A stretch of DNA of 37,425 bases from a virus (lineage: Duplodnaviria; Heunggongvirae; Uroviricota; Caudoviricetes), in IMG/VR virus record IMGVR_UViG_2565956616_000008; one strand, given 5' to 3'. The notes below the pieces were generated by a model. It had not been told where the DNA came from and did not search any database. It saw only the letters and a program-made list of their open reading frames with translations. This document shows positions 1,508-36,113 of this stretch, one piece after another (position 1 is the stretch's first letter; each line of letters begins with the position of its first letter). The translations under genes were made by a program, and so were the position numbers.

Positions 1508-2029
1508 ATGCGGGACTTCATTGCCGATAAAGAGTTATCTGACCACCAACCACTTCAGGAAAGTGACACACTCAGCGGATCCATTGATGCCGCCAACGAC
1601 GACGAACACGAAGAAAACAAGAAAAAGCGTTCCTACAAAAAAGGAGCGACTTTACGGCTGGATGGTCCGATCGCCGGGCTTTGCTCTCTGGAAAAAGGCG
1701 CGGCATATATTGGGCTAACAAAATCTGCACTGCGCGTAGCCATTCATCGCGGTCAAATGCCGGGACACAAGACGCGCACAAACCCGGAAGATGAAAACTC
1801 AGACGGAGTATGGTGGTTTAACGCCAAAGAGTGGGACAAGTTGGCTGATGAGCTACCAGAGCACGAGCCCCCAGAATGGCACAACTGGAAAAGTTACTGG
1901 ACGTATGACCGCCAGAAAAGGAAGTTCTCTCCAGCTAATAAAGAAGACTGCCAGACCATTAACGGTAAGCGAGTTTATACAGGCAGAAGCTCAAAACTGA
2001 ACCAACTCAGAAACAACAGAGGCAACTAA
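1508..2029 (+). CDS. Cox/excisionase-like DNA-binding protein with N- and C-terminal extensions
   Basis: 173 aa; central segment AAYIGLTKSALRVAIHRGQMPG...VWWFNAKEW resembles the P2 Cox / AlpA-type HTH; first gene of the early operon; AAGAGG 7 nt before ATG. Confidence 0.6.
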   Translation: MRDFIADKELSDHQPLQESDTLSGSIDAANDDEHEENKKKRSYKKGATLRLDGPIAGLCSLEKGAAYIGLTKSALRVAIHRGQMPGHKTRTNPEDENSDGVWWFNAKEWDKLADELPEHEPPEWHNWKSYWTYDRQKRKFSPANKEDCQTINGKRVYTGRSSKLNQLRNNRGN

Positions 2030-6190: not shown

Positions 6191-6306
6191 GTATGCCGTT
6201 CTCACAAAAAAACCGCTTGCCATGCCGCAATCAGTCAGGTTACATTTCCGCTGCACCTCATAAAACGGGTGCCGGGTTTCGCAGCCTGCTGACAACCAAA
6301 GCGCAC

Positions 6307-6327
6307 AACCGCGCCAGCGGTTTTTTT
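6307..6327 (+). terminator. rho-independent terminator-like hairpin
   Basis: AACCGC-gcca-GCGGTT stem-loop followed by a 7-T run. Confidence 0.55.
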
Positions 6328-6368
6328 GTGCGTACTGTATTGCCACGTCTTTTTCGCACACGAATTAT

Positions 6369-6444
6369 GGCGGGGCGTACGGGGCCGACTTCGGTCGGGC
6401 CGGGTTCTTTGGTTGCCGGTACTGCGAACCCCGTACGTCTCGCC
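6369..6444 (+). promoter_or_regulatory. Long-stem structured element in the leader of the gene at 6507
   Basis: 6369..6384 pairs with 6429..6444 as a 16-bp stem with two G-T (G-U in RNA) pairs; inside, GCCGAC-TTCG-GTCGG(G)C hairpin with a UUCG tetraloop; possible sigma70-like promoter TTGCCA-17-AATTAT at 6340..6368. Confidence 0.45.
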
Positions 6445-6506
6445 ACCCACAGTTTCGCAGCTCTGGATAGTGAGTTTTCAAAACTTACAACCAAAGAGGC
6501 CACACC

Positions 6507-24444: not shown

Positions 24445-26772
24445 ATGAGTACCACAACACGAAAATTTAAAACCATTATCACTGATACTGGTGCCAAAAA
24501 ATTAGCTCAGGCAGCCGCGCCAGATGGTAATCCTGTCCGCCTGACTCACATGGCCGTGGGCGACGGTGGCGGCACGTTGCCCACACCAGACAGTAAGCAG
24601 ACCCGTCTGGTGCATGAGGTGTGGCGACATACTGTTAATCGCGTCATCCTGGACGCAACACATCAGAACCGCATTATTGCGGAGCTGGTTATTCCTCCTG
24701 AAACGGGCGGATTCTGGATCCGGGAAATTGGTGTATTTGATGAGCACGGCGATTTGATCGCGGTGGGCAATACTGCCGAAAGTTACAAGCCAGCCGTTGC
24801 CGAAGGATCCGGACGTGCACAAACATTTCGCACCATTCTGACCGTATCCAGCACTGCCACCGTGGCGCTTACCGTGGATAACACCATGGTTATGGCCACA
24901 GTGGATTACGTGAATGACAAACTGAAAGAACATGAACAGTCACGACGTCACCCGGACGCCTCGCTGACCGCAAAAGGCTTTGTTCAACTCAGTAGCGCCA
25001 CCAACAGCACGTCTGAAGCACTGGCCGCAACGCCGAAAGCGGTCAAGGCAGCCTATGACCTTGCTAACGGGAAATATACCGCACAGGACGCCACCACAGC
25101 GCGAAAAGGTCTTGTCCAGCTCAGTAGCGCCACAAACAGCGATTCTGAAACGCTTGCGGCAACGCCAAAGGCGGTAAAGGCAGCATATGACCTCGCTAAC
25201 GGGAAATATACCGCACAGGATGCCACCACAGCGCGAAAAGGTCTTGTCCAGCTCAGTAGCGCCACCAACAGTGATTCTGAAACGCTTGCGGCAACGCCAA
25301 AGGCGGTAAAGGCCGCGTATGACCTTGCTAACGGGAAATACACTGCACAGGATGCCACTACAGCGCGAAAAGGTCTTGTCCAGCTCAGTAGCGCCACCAA
25401 CAGTGATTCTGAAACGCTGGCCGCAACATCAAAAGCGGTGAAGTCTGCCTATGACAATGCTGAAAAACGTCTTAAGAAAGATCAGAACGGTGCGGATATT
25501 CCGGGAAAGGATACCTTCACGAAAAATATCGGTGCCTGTCGTGCTTATAGCGGCGCTTTGAGCACTGAAGCCGGAAACTGGACAACCGCTCAGTTTATTG
25601 AATGGCTGGATTCCCGTGGTGCATTTAATCATCCGTACTGGATGTGCAAAGGCTCATGGTCATATGCAAATAACAAAATCATTACGGATACCGGATGTGG
25701 TGATATCCACCTGGCTGGTTGTGTCGTCGAGGTCATGGGAACTAAATCTGCAATCACTATCCGAGTGACCACGCCGACAACATCAAGTGGTGGCGGTACA
25801 ACCAGCGCGCAATTCACTTACATTAATCATGGGGGCGGCCACTCCCCCGGCTGGCGTCGTGACTGGAATCGTCAGGGCGACTCAATGACCGGAACGATTA
25901 ATCAGGATGGCGGAAGCCAGAATGCCTATATGTCTACGGCCTTATGTTCAGGCACCAGAGGCGGCAAAAAATATCTCAGAAAGTTTCGTGGTGGAGAAGG
26001 AGACACTATCTGGCATGAAACAGTACAGGGCGGGGTAATTCGCTGGGCGACAGGAAACTATGACGCTCAGGAAGAATTATCACTCAGCTCCGCTTATGGT
26101 CTCCGTTCAAGAGGTGAGATTACATCACTCAGTGCTAATGGTCTGCGCATTGCTTATGGCAATTATGGATTCTTTATCAGGAATGATGGCGGCAGCACAT
26201 ATTTAATGCTGACGGCCTCTGGCGATAAATTTGGGACATGGAACGGCTTAAGACCGCTGACTATCAATAACGCCAATGGCGGAGTGTCAATGGGGCATGG
26301 CCTGAGTGTTACAGGTGATATTGTCTCAAGTACCAAAGTACGTGCCGGTAGCGGGAAAAAGTTCACGGTCAGCAGCGGCAATACATCCACGAAGGAAGCC
26401 GCATTCAATTTGTGGGGAAACGCAAGTCGTCCGGTGGTGGCTGAATTAGGTGATGATGCAGGCTGGCATTTTTACAGTCAGAGAAATACAGATAACAGCA
26501 TCACTTTTGCTGTTAACGGGCAGGTATCACCATCTAACTATGGCAACTTTGATTCACGCTATGTCCGGGATATTAGACTTGGTGGTGCGTCATCCTATAA
26601 ACCAGCAAATAACGGTACAACATGGACGCATCAGGCTCCATCTGGTTGCGCATATACCGGGATTATCGTTCAGGATACAGGCTCAAACTCTGCCGATAAT
26701 ATTGGTGGTGTTTATTACAGACCAATTCAAAAAAATATTAATGGTACATGGTATAACGTATCGAGTGTTTGA
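24445..26772 (+). CDS. H: Tail fibre protein
   Basis: 775 aa; conserved P2 gpH-type N-terminus (MSTTTRKFKTIITDTGAKKLAQAA...); repeat-containing middle and variable C-terminus. Confidence 0.9.
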   Translation: MSTTTRKFKTIITDTGAKKLAQAAAPDGNPVRLTHMAVGDGGGTLPTPDSKQTRLVHEVWRHTVNRVILDATHQNRIIAELVIPPETGGFWIREIGVFDEHGDLIAVGNTAESYKPAVAEGSGRAQTFRTILTVSSTATVALTVDNTMVMATVDYVNDKLKEHEQSRRHPDASLTAKGFVQLSSATNSTSEALAATPKAVKAAYDLANGKYTAQDATTARKGLVQLSSATNSDSETLAATPKAVKAAYDLANGKYTAQDATTARKGLVQLSSATNSDSETLAATPKAVKAAYDLANGKYTAQDATTARKGLVQLSSATNSDSETLAATSKAVKSAYDNAEKRLKKDQNGADIPGKDTFTKNIGACRAYSGALSTEAGNWTTAQFIEWLDSRGAFNHPYWMCKGSWSYANNKIITDTGCGDIHLAGCVVEVMGTKSAITIRVTTPTTSSGGGTTSAQFTYINHGGGHSPGWRRDWNRQGDSMTGTINQDGGSQNAYMSTALCSGTRGGKKYLRKFRGGEGDTIWHETVQGGVIRWATGNYDAQEELSLSSAYGLRSRGEITSLSANGLRIAYGNYGFFIRNDGGSTYLMLTASGDKFGTWNGLRPLTINNANGGVSMGHGLSVTGDIVSSTKVRAGSGKKFTVSSGNTSTKEAAFNLWGNASRPVVAELGDDAGWHFYSQRNTDNSITFAVNGQVSPSNYGNFDSRYVRDIRLGGASSYKPANNGTTWTHQAPSGCAYTGIIVQDTGSNSADNIGGVYYRPIQKNINGTWYNVSSV
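24973..25500 (+). repeat. Four in-frame tandem repeats of 132 bp (44 aa) inside the tail fibre gene
   Basis: Copies start at 24973, 25105, 25237 and 25369 (aa unit GLVQLSSATNSDSETLAATPKAVKAAYDLANGKYTAQDATTARK); near-identical DNA, last copy diverging. Confidence 0.85.
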
Positions 26773-32962: not shown

Positions 32963-33119
32963 AGCTTCAGCCCCTTGTATCCGTTAAATGATTCGGCAAC
33001 AATCATCACCCACCACGCGCGTAATCTCACCCCTGCGCCGTTCTCCCGACCCGGCGACAACAAAAAGCAGTAACCCCCTCCGCACACACATGCGACCATG
33101 CCGCACAGGGAGGGAGCAG

Positions 33120-34229
33120 ATGACCGACACCACCATGCAATTGCTCAGCCAGGGCACAGACCCCGTAAAAATGCCGGATTTTGATATTCTCGCGGAGGGT
33201 AAAACGCTGTCCGGCGTGGCAGAGCGCCTGATGAGCCTGTCGCTGACCGACAACCGGGGATTTGAGGCAGACCAGCTCACCATCACGCTGGATGATGCGG
33301 ATGGTCAGTTGCAGCTACCGCCACGGGGCGCGCGCCTGACGGTTCTCATTGGCTGGAAAGGCGAACCGCTGACAGAAAAAGGGTCTTACATTGTTGATGA
33401 AATCGCTCACGAAGGACCGCCGGACAGGCTGACTGTTTCAGCCAGAAGCGCAGATTTTCGGGATGAATTTAACGTTAAACGTGAGGTGTCCTGGCATGAT
33501 GTGACCGTTGAGCGCGTGGTATCCGCCATCGCTCATCGGTACGGTCTGAAACCGCAAATCAGCGAAATGCTGATGGATATCGAAATCGACCACGCCGACC
33601 AGACCGAAGAAAGCGACATGTCCTTTCTTACGCGCATGGCGGAAATGCTGGGCGCAATCACCACGGTAAAAAGCGGTAATCTGTTATTCATTATGCCAGG
33701 CGGTGGCGTGAACGCACAGGGCCAGCCGTTGCCCTCGTTCGCCATTACACGCAGCAGCGGCGATCGCCATCAGTTCCGTATTGCTGACCGCGAGGCGTAT
33801 ACGGGGGTACGCGCCTACTGGCTTGATCTTAATTACGGGAAAAAGAAAAAAGTCAGCGTGAAACGCCGTAAACCGCCAAAACCCAAAAAGGAGAAAAGCA
33901 GCAGCCGTGAAGGTGATTATATGGAAGGCGCGGAAGGCAATGTGTTTGTGTTACGCAAGACTTATCAGAACGAGCAGGCAGCAAGACGCGCAGCGGCGGC
34001 AAAGTGGCAGCAGCTACAACGCGGAGCCGCATCATTCTCCATCACGCTGGCGCGTGGACGTGCAGAACTCTACCCTGAAATGCATGGCACGGTGACAGGC
34101 TTTAAAAGTGACATCGACAATCAGGACTGGATTATTGCAAAAGCCGAGCACACCATTGATAACAGCGGCTTTACCACGCAGCTTGAGCTTGAAGCAAAAA
34201 TCCCAGAATGGATAGCAGAAACAGAGTAA
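33120..34229 (+). CDS. D: Late control / tail protein D
   Basis: P2 gpD family features (MQLLSQ...LSLTDNRG.EADQL.I.LDD.DG); ATG at 33120 preceded by GGGAGGGAG (track ORF starts further upstream). Confidence 0.85.
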   Translation: MTDTTMQLLSQGTDPVKMPDFDILAEGKTLSGVAERLMSLSLTDNRGFEADQLTITLDDADGQLQLPPRGARLTVLIGWKGEPLTEKGSYIVDEIAHEGPPDRLTVSARSADFRDEFNVKREVSWHDVTVERVVSAIAHRYGLKPQISEMLMDIEIDHADQTEESDMSFLTRMAEMLGAITTVKSGNLLFIMPGGGVNAQGQPLPSFAITRSSGDRHQFRIADREAYTGVRAYWLDLNYGKKKKVSVKRRKPPKPKKEKSSSREGDYMEGAEGNVFVLRKTYQNEQAARRAAAAKWQQLQRGAASFSITLARGRAELYPEMHGTVTGFKSDIDNQDWIIAKAEHTIDNSGFTTQLELEAKIPEWIAETE

Positions 34230-34423
34230 ACAACTTAGATGCATTAGCCCTGACATTTGCTAACGCGCCTACAGCAAGAATCATAATCAATCTGACAGCC
34301 TACCCGGTGTCAAAATCAGAAGTACCTTACATTAGAATATGTTAATTTGTAGCAAACAAATTTACACACAAATAATTACTGCTGAAATAGCGCCCCATAA
34401 ATGCCATGTCAGAGGACCATGTT

Positions 34424-35089
34424 ATGAATATGCAAATTTTTATTGGACCAACAGCCACAGTTGCCGCGGTCTGCCTTGCTGCATATTTTGCTTTACGAAA
34501 TGAGCGTAAAAAGAAAGCGCTTGAGATTAGAACAACTCAACTAGATCGAATATCTGAGCTAGTAAGCAGAGCATCTACCAATTTGATGCAATATACAGGT
34601 ACTCTTGCCTCTATACTGGAAGCGCACACCAAAGAAAATTATCTACCAGACCACAAATTTAACATTAATGAAATTAGCAAATGGAAAAATGATCTCGATA
34701 AGAGAGAAGATTGGGCTATTGATATACAGCAACTAAGAACATGCCAGCACAACCTGGAGTTTCATCGTGAAAAAGAATGGGCTGAATGGGAAAAAATAAT
34801 TCCACCATTACTTGATAAAATTAACCAATTTTTTCTCATATCCAAGCCGGGGCAACCTGTTACGCTTATAAATGGTCAAAATAAAACAGTCGATGAACTG
34901 ATTGCTTTCTCAATATACTTACAACAACAAACAGAAGAAATTAAAGCGGTACGTAAGCTGCTACTTTCTCAAATGAGAGAAGAATTCATCGAGTTAACTA
35001 GCTTTGAACCTGTCACAATATTTAGCTTATTAAAATCAATAAAGAAAAGTGTCCTGCAATTTTTCTGTATCAGTGCTCTTAAAAATTGA
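34424..35089 (+). CDS. AT-rich cargo gene: membrane-anchored hypothetical protein
   Basis: 221 aa from ATG 34424 (AGAGGA 7 nt upstream); N-terminal TM helix (IFIGPTATVAAVCLAAYFAL) then a charged helical domain; AT-rich relative to flanking phage DNA; own terminator downstream. Confidence 0.55.
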   Translation: MNMQIFIGPTATVAAVCLAAYFALRNERKKKALEIRTTQLDRISELVSRASTNLMQYTGTLASILEAHTKENYLPDHKFNINEISKWKNDLDKREDWAIDIQQLRTCQHNLEFHREKEWAEWEKIIPPLLDKINQFFLISKPGQPVTLINGQNKTVDELIAFSIYLQQQTEEIKAVRKLLLSQMREEFIELTSFEPVTIFSLLKSIKKSVLQFFCISALKN

Positions 35090-35106
35090 CGCTCTGTTAC
35101 AAGCAA

Positions 35107-35134
35107 CCCCAGTGTTAAACTGGGGTTATTCTTG
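35107..35134 (+). terminator. rho-independent terminator after the cargo gene
   Basis: CCCCAGT-gttaa-ACTGGGG hairpin followed by TTATTCTT. Confidence 0.6.
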
Positions 35135-35238
35135 CTAAGAGACCTTTATACGGCATAAGTAAACAAAGAGAACTATCAGTTGGAGTCTGAGCAAGTTCAG
35201 CCTAAACTAGCGACAGTACCACGTTAAGGGAGGTCGCT

Positions 35239-35499: not shown

Positions 35500-35559
35500 C
35501 AGGCAGAATTGCCGGAGTAACAAAAAAGCGATAGATTACGCGCGGGTGCCTTTCGGCTG

Positions 35560-35772
35560 ATGGTCGGAGGGAATACCCGAAGGCCGGATGTGGAAAGGCC
35601 CCGGAAAACATTTTTGTTTAACCGAGGCCCTGACCATACAACCTTCGCAAGTCGTAGGTTAGCGCCTCTCCAACAAAGGAGCAAGCGCTATGTCGCAAAA
35701 ATCGCTTATGGCCATCACGTTCTGCGTGACGGTAATCCTCATCATCTGGATGCTGCACGGTTCGCTGTGTGA
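35560..35772 (+). CDS. mok-like overlapping reading frame of the hok-type locus
   Basis: 70-codon ORF in a different frame overlapping the leader and 5' part of the hok-like gene, the arrangement known for mok/hok. Confidence 0.35.
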   Translation: MVGGNTRRPDVERPRKTFLFNRGPDHTTFASRRLAPLQQRSKRYVAKIAYGHHVLRDGNPHHLDAARFAV

Positions 35773-35830
35773 AATACGGATGAGCTTCTGGGGAGCGGAG
35801 TTTGCGGCGTTCTTACAGTGTAAGCAGTAA
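35690..35830 (+). CDS. hok: Hok/Gef-family type I toxin (46 aa)
   Basis: Translation MSQKSLMAITFCVTVILIIWMLHGSLCEIRMSFWGAEFAAFLQCKQ: TM helix then conserved SLCEIR...E(F/V)AAF as in Hok/Gef as recalled; AAGGAG 8 nt upstream; below the ORF-track size cut-off. Confidence 0.8.
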   Translation: MSQKSLMAITFCVTVILIIWMLHGSLCEIRMSFWGAEFAAFLQCKQ

Positions 35831-35921
35831 GGAAACCGCGACGGGGGAGCAATCCCCCGTCAATCGGTTGCCAGGGTAAAGGTCGAAAAGGCACCCTATT
35901 TCCAGTTGACGTGAACAACAA

Positions 35922-35954
35922 GCCCGCAGCGTAAAAACTGCGGGTTTTCTTTTT
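35922..35954 (+). terminator. rho-independent terminator
   Basis: CCCGCAG-N8-CTGCGGG hairpin followed by TTTTCTTTTT. Confidence 0.65.
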
Positions 35955-35986
35955 GGTTCCCTCACTCATGAGGAAACCAAAAACAA

Positions 35987-36017
35987 AGCCCACAGCATAG
36001 AAGCTGTGGGCTTTTTG
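35987..36017 (+). terminator. rho-independent terminator
   Basis: AGCCCACAGC...GCTGTGGGCT hairpin followed by TTTTT. Confidence 0.6.
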
Positions 36018-36089
36018 CATTCAAAGATGGACGTTATATGGACACTTAAAAATAAAATCCATTTATTTTCAAATGATTAAACCTCTACT

Positions 36090-36113
36090 TAAAGCGCCCG
36101 CAGGCGCTTTTTA
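36090..36113. terminator. Bidirectional terminator downstream of serS
   Basis: AGCGCC-cgca-GGCGCT hairpin flanked by AAA on one side and TTTTT on the other. Confidence 0.6.

Follow-up and report, generated by a model that had tools for sequence, protein, structure and literature searches.

The window analysed here, a stretch of 37,425 nucleotides of DNA from a tailed virus (Caudoviricetes), carries a small locus just downstream of its ogr gene. The preliminary description of this DNA had read it as a hok/sok-like type I toxin-antitoxin locus, and this core reading is supported by evidence from the peptide, the leader, the RNA switch, and the antisense strand. The features of the locus, in window coordinates, are the following.

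35509..35537, plus strand: candidate hok promoter, TTGCCG (35509..35514), a 17-nt spacer, and TAGATT (35532..35537)
35544..35896, plus strand: core of the hok mRNA, from its putative 5′ end to the end of fbi
35544..35558, plus strand: tac, the 5′ end of the mRNA, predicted to pair with 35880..35896 in the full-length RNA or with 35593..35602 when the 3′ end is removed
35560..35772, plus strand: 70-codon open reading frame (ORF) called mok-like, overlapping the start of hok
35590..35650, minus strand: predicted Sok-like antisense RNA of about 60 nt, ends inferred
35593..35602, plus strand: ucb-like element GAAAGGCCCC, the alternative partner of tac
35656..35684, minus strand: candidate sok promoter, TTGCTC (35684..35679), a 17-nt spacer, and TAACCT (35661..35656)
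35660..35690, plus strand: predicted hairpin sequestering the Shine-Dalgarno (SD) sequence, with an AGCGC/GCGCU outer stem and CUCC (35668..35671) paired with GGAG (35678..35681)
35676..35681, plus strand: SD sequence AAGGAG upstream of hok
35690..35830, plus strand: hok toxin gene, 46 codons and a stop, product MSQKSLMAITFCVTVILIIWMLHGSLCEIRMSFWGAEFAAFLQCKQ
35840..35861, plus strand: 3′ untranslated region (UTR) hairpin GACGGGGGA-GCAA-UCCCCCGUC, predicted in all folds
35880..35896, plus strand: fbi, the 3′ partner of tac, beginning 50 nt past the stop codon
35920..35954, plus strand: terminator-like hairpin (35920..35947; 10 pairs, 6 of them G-C) followed by TCTTTTT, with tail TCTTTTTGGT
36091..36110, no strand assigned: attR core AAAGCGCCCGCAGGCGCTTT, which is the serS terminator hairpin, at the right end of the prophage

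The Hok peptide and the hok mRNA

The 46-codon gene described earlier as Hok/Gef-type corresponds to the plus-strand ORF at 35690..35830. Alignment to the Hok/Gef family, which had been proposed as a check, gave a match to Pfam PF01848 (HOK_GEF) above threshold (30.3 bits, cut-off 22, residues 7-44) and a full-length match to PHROG 251 ("MokW-like host killing"; 82.5 bits, E = 3e-23). The NCBIfam models matched the peptide below their strict cut-offs (HokA, 35.1 versus 89; Hok, 23.7 versus 73), and a PADLOC search gave no match to it. The peptide has the form of the family, whose small members (about 46-55 amino acids) begin with a hydrophobic helix and keep C, T, L-C-E, and E at set positions. 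Read from the sequence, its 46 residues include C12, T14, L26, C27, E28, and E37, and these are the counterparts of C16, T18, L30, C31, E32, and E41, which are conserved in more than 80% of sequences in the Hok logo of Escalera-Maurer et al. (2026 preprint; 10.1101/2025.08.07.668861). It ends in ...AEFAAFLQCKQ, as do the 46-residue members of a widespread phage-borne Hok cluster. The frame is intact in all 50 distinct alleles collected, and dN/dS, measured against divergent homologues, is 0.22-0.27. Because the identity of the peptide to the characterised Hok, HokB-E, HokW, PndA, and SrnB is only 24-35%, the label "MokW-like" in phage records is a family name and does not denote orthology.

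The module itself is already known. An identical coding sequence is present in RefSeq as WP_000078911.1, "Hok/Gef family protein," a label borne by every listed E. coli match with at least 80% coverage. In the preprint catalogue of Escalera-Maurer et al., the family is the high-abundance Hok cluster 72 (10.1101/2025.08.07.668861); the window peptide is identical to member 72_1621 at 44 of 46 positions (96%) and to the Stx-phage form, 72_1589, at 35 of 46, and cluster 72, WP_000078911.1, and PHROG 251 represent no difference at the peptide level. The same study reported an enrichment of hok genes in prophages and included 72_1621 and 72_1589 among the homologues selected for toxicity tests by arabinose induction; 42 of the 45 tested homologues were toxic, and the three named as non-toxic are other peptides (10.1101/2025.08.07.668861). 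Going by this literature on homologues, the peptide of the window may be toxic on expression. The catalogue deliberately left mok, Sok, and mRNA structure out of its analysis (10.1101/2025.08.07.668861), and the RNA anatomy given here is absent from it. What is gained here is a firm placement of the promoter, tac, ucb, Sok, fbi, and the 3′ hairpin on the window, and the assignment of the cassette to the prophage and not to the host.

A sigma-70 promoter scan at the standard threshold of 9/12 returned no site on either strand. The hok promoter candidate was the best plus-strand match in a relaxed scan (8/12). Counted from G35544, its -10 box occupies -12..-7, the distance at which the mutationally defined -10 box of R1 hok, TATGAT, precedes the 5′ end of its mRNA (PMC9841398). 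The homologue in Stx phages has TTGCCC-17-TAGATT at the equivalent place. The suggested check against hok/sok RNA models succeeded in part: Rfam at gathering thresholds reported no hok/sok family in the region, while RF01794, searched in E-value mode, matched 35544..35700 over its whole model with E = 7.7e-8 and a score of 41.4 bits, below the gathering score of 59. RF01794 is named "sok antitoxin" and models the hok-sense leader, beginning at the mRNA 5′ end and reaching as far as the hok ATG; since it is the sense and not the antisense strand that the family matches, the match marks the hok leader and carries no Sok orientation. The 5′ arm, tac, begins exactly at the start of this leader model (35544). 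DNA homology to the Stx phages covers 35523..35896, in agreement with the RNA ends; it takes in the -10 box and stops at the final base of the 3′ element, and because homology between two phage lineages spans precisely this segment, the cassette moves as a unit. The terminator noted earlier was recovered by a pattern scan as the hairpin and T-run at 35920..35954, and hok transcription probably runs on to it, ending at about 35952. This hairpin is common to phage P88; the Stx-phage homology ends at fbi.

The end-to-end complementarity pointed out in the preliminary description, between GGGTGCCTTT (35544..35553) and AAAGGCACCC (35887..35896), is exact, and the two segments are paired in the predicted full-length fold. 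A 10-nt complement alone is unremarkable in so long a stretch; its position at the two RNA ends and its conservation lift it above chance. In the minimum-energy fold of 35544..35900, tac and fbi form 15 base pairs with one bulge (nt 1-15 with 35880..35896), and the whole fold, at -154.7 kcal/mol (z = -5.4), was equalled by none of 100 shuffled sequences. The duplex of the 5′ end with the 3′ UTR reached -25.7 kcal/mol compared to -17.8 ± 2.6 for shuffled 3′ UTRs, 3 of 300 being as good. Across 20 homologues, 89% of the cells of the tac/fbi helix were paired, versus 39-60% when the partner was slid along the alignment, and no pair of the helix had changed on both sides. The Stx-phage, hokB, hokC, hokW, and R1-type loci have counterparts of this duplex built from other sequences, in which the 5′ end pairs with a 3′ UTR segment 35-62 nt past the stop codon. 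Since covariation was not found within the cluster, the support for tac/fbi comes from conservation and from the comparison with other hok loci.

Alternative folds of the leader and the antisense RNA

A second pairing of tac was found in the leader itself. In the RNAalifold consensus of 20 homologues, columns 1-11 pair with columns 50-59, which is the tac/ucb helix, and this helix also appears in the minimum-energy folds of RNAs cut in silico at 35862-35880. After removal of the 3′ end, GAGGC (35624..35628) is predicted to pair with GCCUC (35664..35668); in the ensemble, the open form reaches only about 0.2. The local hairpin over the SD sequence is predicted to be stable throughout: GGAG pairs with CUCC at a probability of 0.89 both in the full-length RNA and with the Sok target blocked, and of 0.80 in the 3′-truncated RNA. 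The pattern is alike in most of the 20 homologues, with a median SD pairing of 0.86 in the full-length RNA. Release of the SD sequence by 3′ truncation was suggested by the minimum-energy fold; the ensemble keeps the SD sequence paired, and such release is not claimed here.

The hairpin in the 3′ UTR shows compensatory changes, one pair being GC in 15 and AU in five sequences and the next being AU, GC, or CG. The last stem-loop of the truncated R1 hok mRNA protects that RNA (PMC9841398), and the hairpin of the window matches it in position. By this analogy, it is likely to be the stop point for 3′ trimming.

An antisense, sok-like RNA had been expected on the minus strand over the leader. Such an RNA is predicted here from about 35650 to 35590, on two lines of evidence. 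First, the annotated sokC and sokB RNAs of E. coli K-12 map antisense to window positions 35588..35648. Second, all 20 homologues give a more stable hairpin here from the antisense strand than from the sense strand (mean difference, -7.1 kcal/mol); G-U pairs of the antisense RNA would be C-A mismatches in the sense RNA. The consensus fold of Sok retains some pairs through changes on both sides. The RNA is predicted to open with about 20 single-stranded nucleotides, to continue into a long hairpin (35629..35597), and to close with a UUUCC tail at its 3′ end. The 5′ tail, like the target it faces, ranks among the least conserved stretches of the module.

The candidate sok promoter agrees with the consensus at 6 of 12 positions and was reported by neither scan, the relaxed one included. 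We infer its position from an AGGTTAG block conserved in the 20 homologues and from spacing: the 17-nt spacing would put the start of sok near 35649, adjoining the mapped 5′ ends of sokB and sokC.

Taken together with the R1 system, these elements suggest how the locus may operate. The weak promoter just past ogr would give an RNA from about 35544, and the full-length form of this RNA would be locked, with tac at its 5′ end paired with fbi and the hok ribosome-binding site held in the local hairpin. Slow trimming from the 3′ end to the hairpin at 35840..35861 would remove fbi, whereupon tac could pair with 35593..35602 and the leader refold. A short, unstable Sok-like RNA would then pair with the refolded leader and silence hok, probably via cleavage by RNase III; if the supply of Sok ended, the pool of stable hok mRNA would yield the membrane toxin of 46 amino acids. 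Slow 3′ exonucleolytic processing, the action of RNase III on the Sok-hok duplex, and the instability of Sok beside a stable hok mRNA have been described for R1 (PMC9841398); of these steps, the window shows only the 3′ hairpin at which trimming would halt, and it is from this paradigm that 3′ processing, RNase III cleavage, the relative half-lives of the two RNAs, and killing would be carried over to the window.

Reading frames in the hok leader

In the canonical arrangement, a leader frame, mok, begins within the target of Sok and extends past the start of hok, whose translation is coupled to it. The same procedure that was applied to the window found an ATG at -57/-58 and a frame open across the hok start in the R1-type, hokB, hokC, and hokW loci. 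The cluster of the window, by comparison, has no ATG at -57/-58, and no overlapping frame is conserved among its 50 alleles. The usual mok frame thus appears absent, and this is the sole unusual trait of an otherwise ordinary cassette.

We put forward, as a tentative reading with somewhat less than even confidence, that this widespread Hok cluster is a naturally mok-less branch of hok/sok. In such a branch, hok would be translated from its own strong SD sequence without a leader ORF, and Sok would silence it only through decay or by holding the leader closed. For the second of these routes, the folding models suggest that Sok would cover the GAGGC strand, which could otherwise draw away the anti-SD strand; GAGGC is predicted to pair with the anti-SD strand at a probability of 0.00 both in the full-length RNA and when the Sok site is blocked, and at a median of 0.21 in truncated RNAs.

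Another explanation is that a short leader ORF, starting at the ATG at 35588, has replaced mok. In the window, this ORF has 24 codons and ends with a UAG at 35660..35662, the foot of the SD-sequestering hairpin, so that its translation would melt the hairpin, and Sok, being complementary to the whole ORF, would block that translation. The ATG is found in 48 of the 50 alleles, most alleles carry an ORF of 15-29 codons that ends 16-60 nt before the hok ATG, and the ORF lies entirely inside the Sok-complementary region. Set against these points, the frame and stop vary among the alleles (-16, -30, -38, -46, -51, and -60), the ATG is missing from the two most divergent homologues, and the ORF has only 1-6 codons in two others. 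Furthermore, neither the full-length nor the truncated RNA is predicted to leave the ATG unpaired, and it sits in the conserved ucb-like element, which alone accounts for its conservation. On balance, we regard a substitute leader ORF as unlikely.

The canonical mechanism, in which the frame at 35560..35772 would be translated and blocked by Sok with hok translation coupled to it, has even less in its favour and is very improbable. The ORF, called mok-like in the preliminary description, does exist and does overlap the start of hok, and the same ATG and open frame are present in 12 of the 50 unique alleles, but the role assigned to it finds no backing in position or conservation. Its ATG, at -130, follows the start of the RNA by a mere 16 nt; it lies within a 5′ hairpin and outside the Sok-complementary region and has no SD sequence, and the canonical position at -57/-58 reads ACA in the window. 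As many as 37 of the 50 alleles have no ORF with an ATG, GTG, or TTG start across the hok start; in most homologues, a stop interrupts the frame and no start follows it, and 1-2-nt indels separate the leaders of homologues. The ORF is most likely fortuitous. The missing mok is the one point of possible interest to specialists in type I toxin-antitoxin systems, and a common, naturally mok-less cluster, if that reading is true, would offer a ready test of how general the coupling of mok and hok is.

Location in the prophage and relation to known hok loci

The preliminary description had left open whether the locus is chromosomal or prophage cargo. The 20-nt att core (36091..36110) occurs once in the serS-dmsA spacer of K-12, and homology to K-12 on the serS side begins at window position 36091. 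A further copy is found as attL beside dmsA in lysogen JNE082640, immediately beyond the integrase gene, which has its stop codon at base 1 of the window. It was in JNE082640 that attL was found; ETEC4077, the first strain with a 100% match to the locus, carries a shorter prophage remnant. Because the att core lies downstream of the hok locus, the locus is within the prophage, about 190 nt from attR, and the question is settled in favour of prophage cargo.

The prophage is P2-like, with ogr (Pfam Ogr_Delta), gpD, and an integrase, and parts of phage P88 (Xuanwuvirus, Peduoviridae) match it at 95-97% identity. The same cassette is present in P88 and in other Xuanwuvirus genomes, and of 87 homologous loci, 79 are preceded by ogr. 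DNA copies with about 82% identity adjoin lom in Stx2 phages. Of 5426 complete E. coli genomes, 1549 carry the 378-nt module, in as many as seven copies each. Three relatives with peptides 74-98% identical (L011, L012, and L015) are in assemblies labelled Planococcaceae, Vagococcus, and Xanthomonas pisi, labels that most likely reflect enterobacterial contamination of these assemblies.

In the lysogen (window region 35955..36110), the T-run that follows the att core in the serS sense is shortened from 7 T, as in K-12, to 3 T, and the phage arm adds a terminator-like hairpin on the minus strand at 36014..35985. This hairpin could halt read-through from serS, which would run antisense to hok.

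Compared to the paradigm, the hok/sok (parB) system of R1, the cassette shares the overall layout (a leader of 146 nt here and of 168 nt in the R1-type locus), the -10 box at -12..-7, the predicted tac/fbi and tac/ucb pairings, a putative antisense RNA over the leader, a sequestered SD sequence, and a protective 3′ hairpin. It differs in several respects. First, the tac/fbi cores are GGGUGCCUUU/AAAGGCACCC versus GGCGCUU/AAGCGCC. Second, the peptides are only 33% identical. Third, the window has neither a mok start at the canonical position nor a conserved overlapping frame. Finally, the R1 system is on a plasmid, while the cassette of the window is on a prophage.

The hokW/mokW/sokW system of the Stx2 phages 933W and Sp5 (Takada et al. 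2021, PMC8621323) is likewise prophage-borne. Phage records label the gene of the window "MokW-like host killing," yet its product is only 33% identical to HokW, and hokW, unlike the window, carries its mok ATG at -57. In Stx phages, the true counterpart of the window locus is not hokW but a second, unannotated module of 933W by lom, with about 82% DNA identity. This copy lies just after lom (NC_000924, about 45.5-45.9 kb; positions 1512..1866 of our locus L010) and contains a 46-amino-acid ORF at L010 position 1661; the annotated hokW/mokW/sokW near 58.5 kb is additional to it.

The hokB/sokB system of K-12 also resembles the cassette in its RNA elements. Its tac and fbi cores are nearly identical to those of the window (GGGUGCC...GGCACCC), its fbi starts 48 nt past the stop codon compared to 50 nt in the window, and the annotated sokB maps onto the predicted Sok. 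The hokB locus differs in that its peptide is 24% identical to that of the window, it has a mokB ATG at -58, and it is chromosomal and not phage-borne.

In silico, the peptide belongs to the Hok/Gef family, the mRNA has two alternative pairings, the antisense hairpin is strand-specific, and the locus is within a prophage. With high confidence, we interpret the locus as a type I toxin-antitoxin cassette of the hok/sok type, carried as accessory cargo in the slot between ogr and att of a P2-like (P88/Xuanwuvirus-type) prophage that is integrated at the serS terminator. That it is instead an inactive, decaying hok remnant without present function, like several chromosomal hok loci of K-12, would fit the missing mok and the weak promoter matches, but is hardly credible given the intact hok frame in 50 of 50 unique alleles and its dN/dS of 0.22-0.27, the conservation of all of the tac, ucb, fbi, Sok-hairpin, and 3′-hairpin elements, the presence of the cassette in those 1549 of 5426 genomes and in two unrelated phage lineages, and the inclusion of near-identical peptides in the tested list of the preprint outside its three named non-toxic ones (10.1101/2025.08.07.668861). 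As for its biological role, the hok/sok-type cassette could serve in retention of the prophage, in phage exclusion, or in lysis, which hokW is reported to help (PMC8621323).

Several other features were observed elsewhere in the window. An ORF of 227 amino acids (34406..35089, plus strand) lies between tail gene D (32988..34229) and ogr, in a region (34240..35207) that has no counterpart in P88; searches of Pfam, PADLOC, and PHROG gave no match to it, so that a second cargo slot here holds an accessory gene that is uncharacterised. Three direct repeat copies (24972..25455), spaced at 132 nt and 85-100% identical to the reference copy, lie inside an ORF of 775 amino acids (24445..26772). In the early region of the prophage, Rfam gave gathering-level matches on the plus strand to two adjacent RNAs, isrK (6253..6327, 65.9 bits) and C4 antisense RNA (6363..6450, 87.1 bits).
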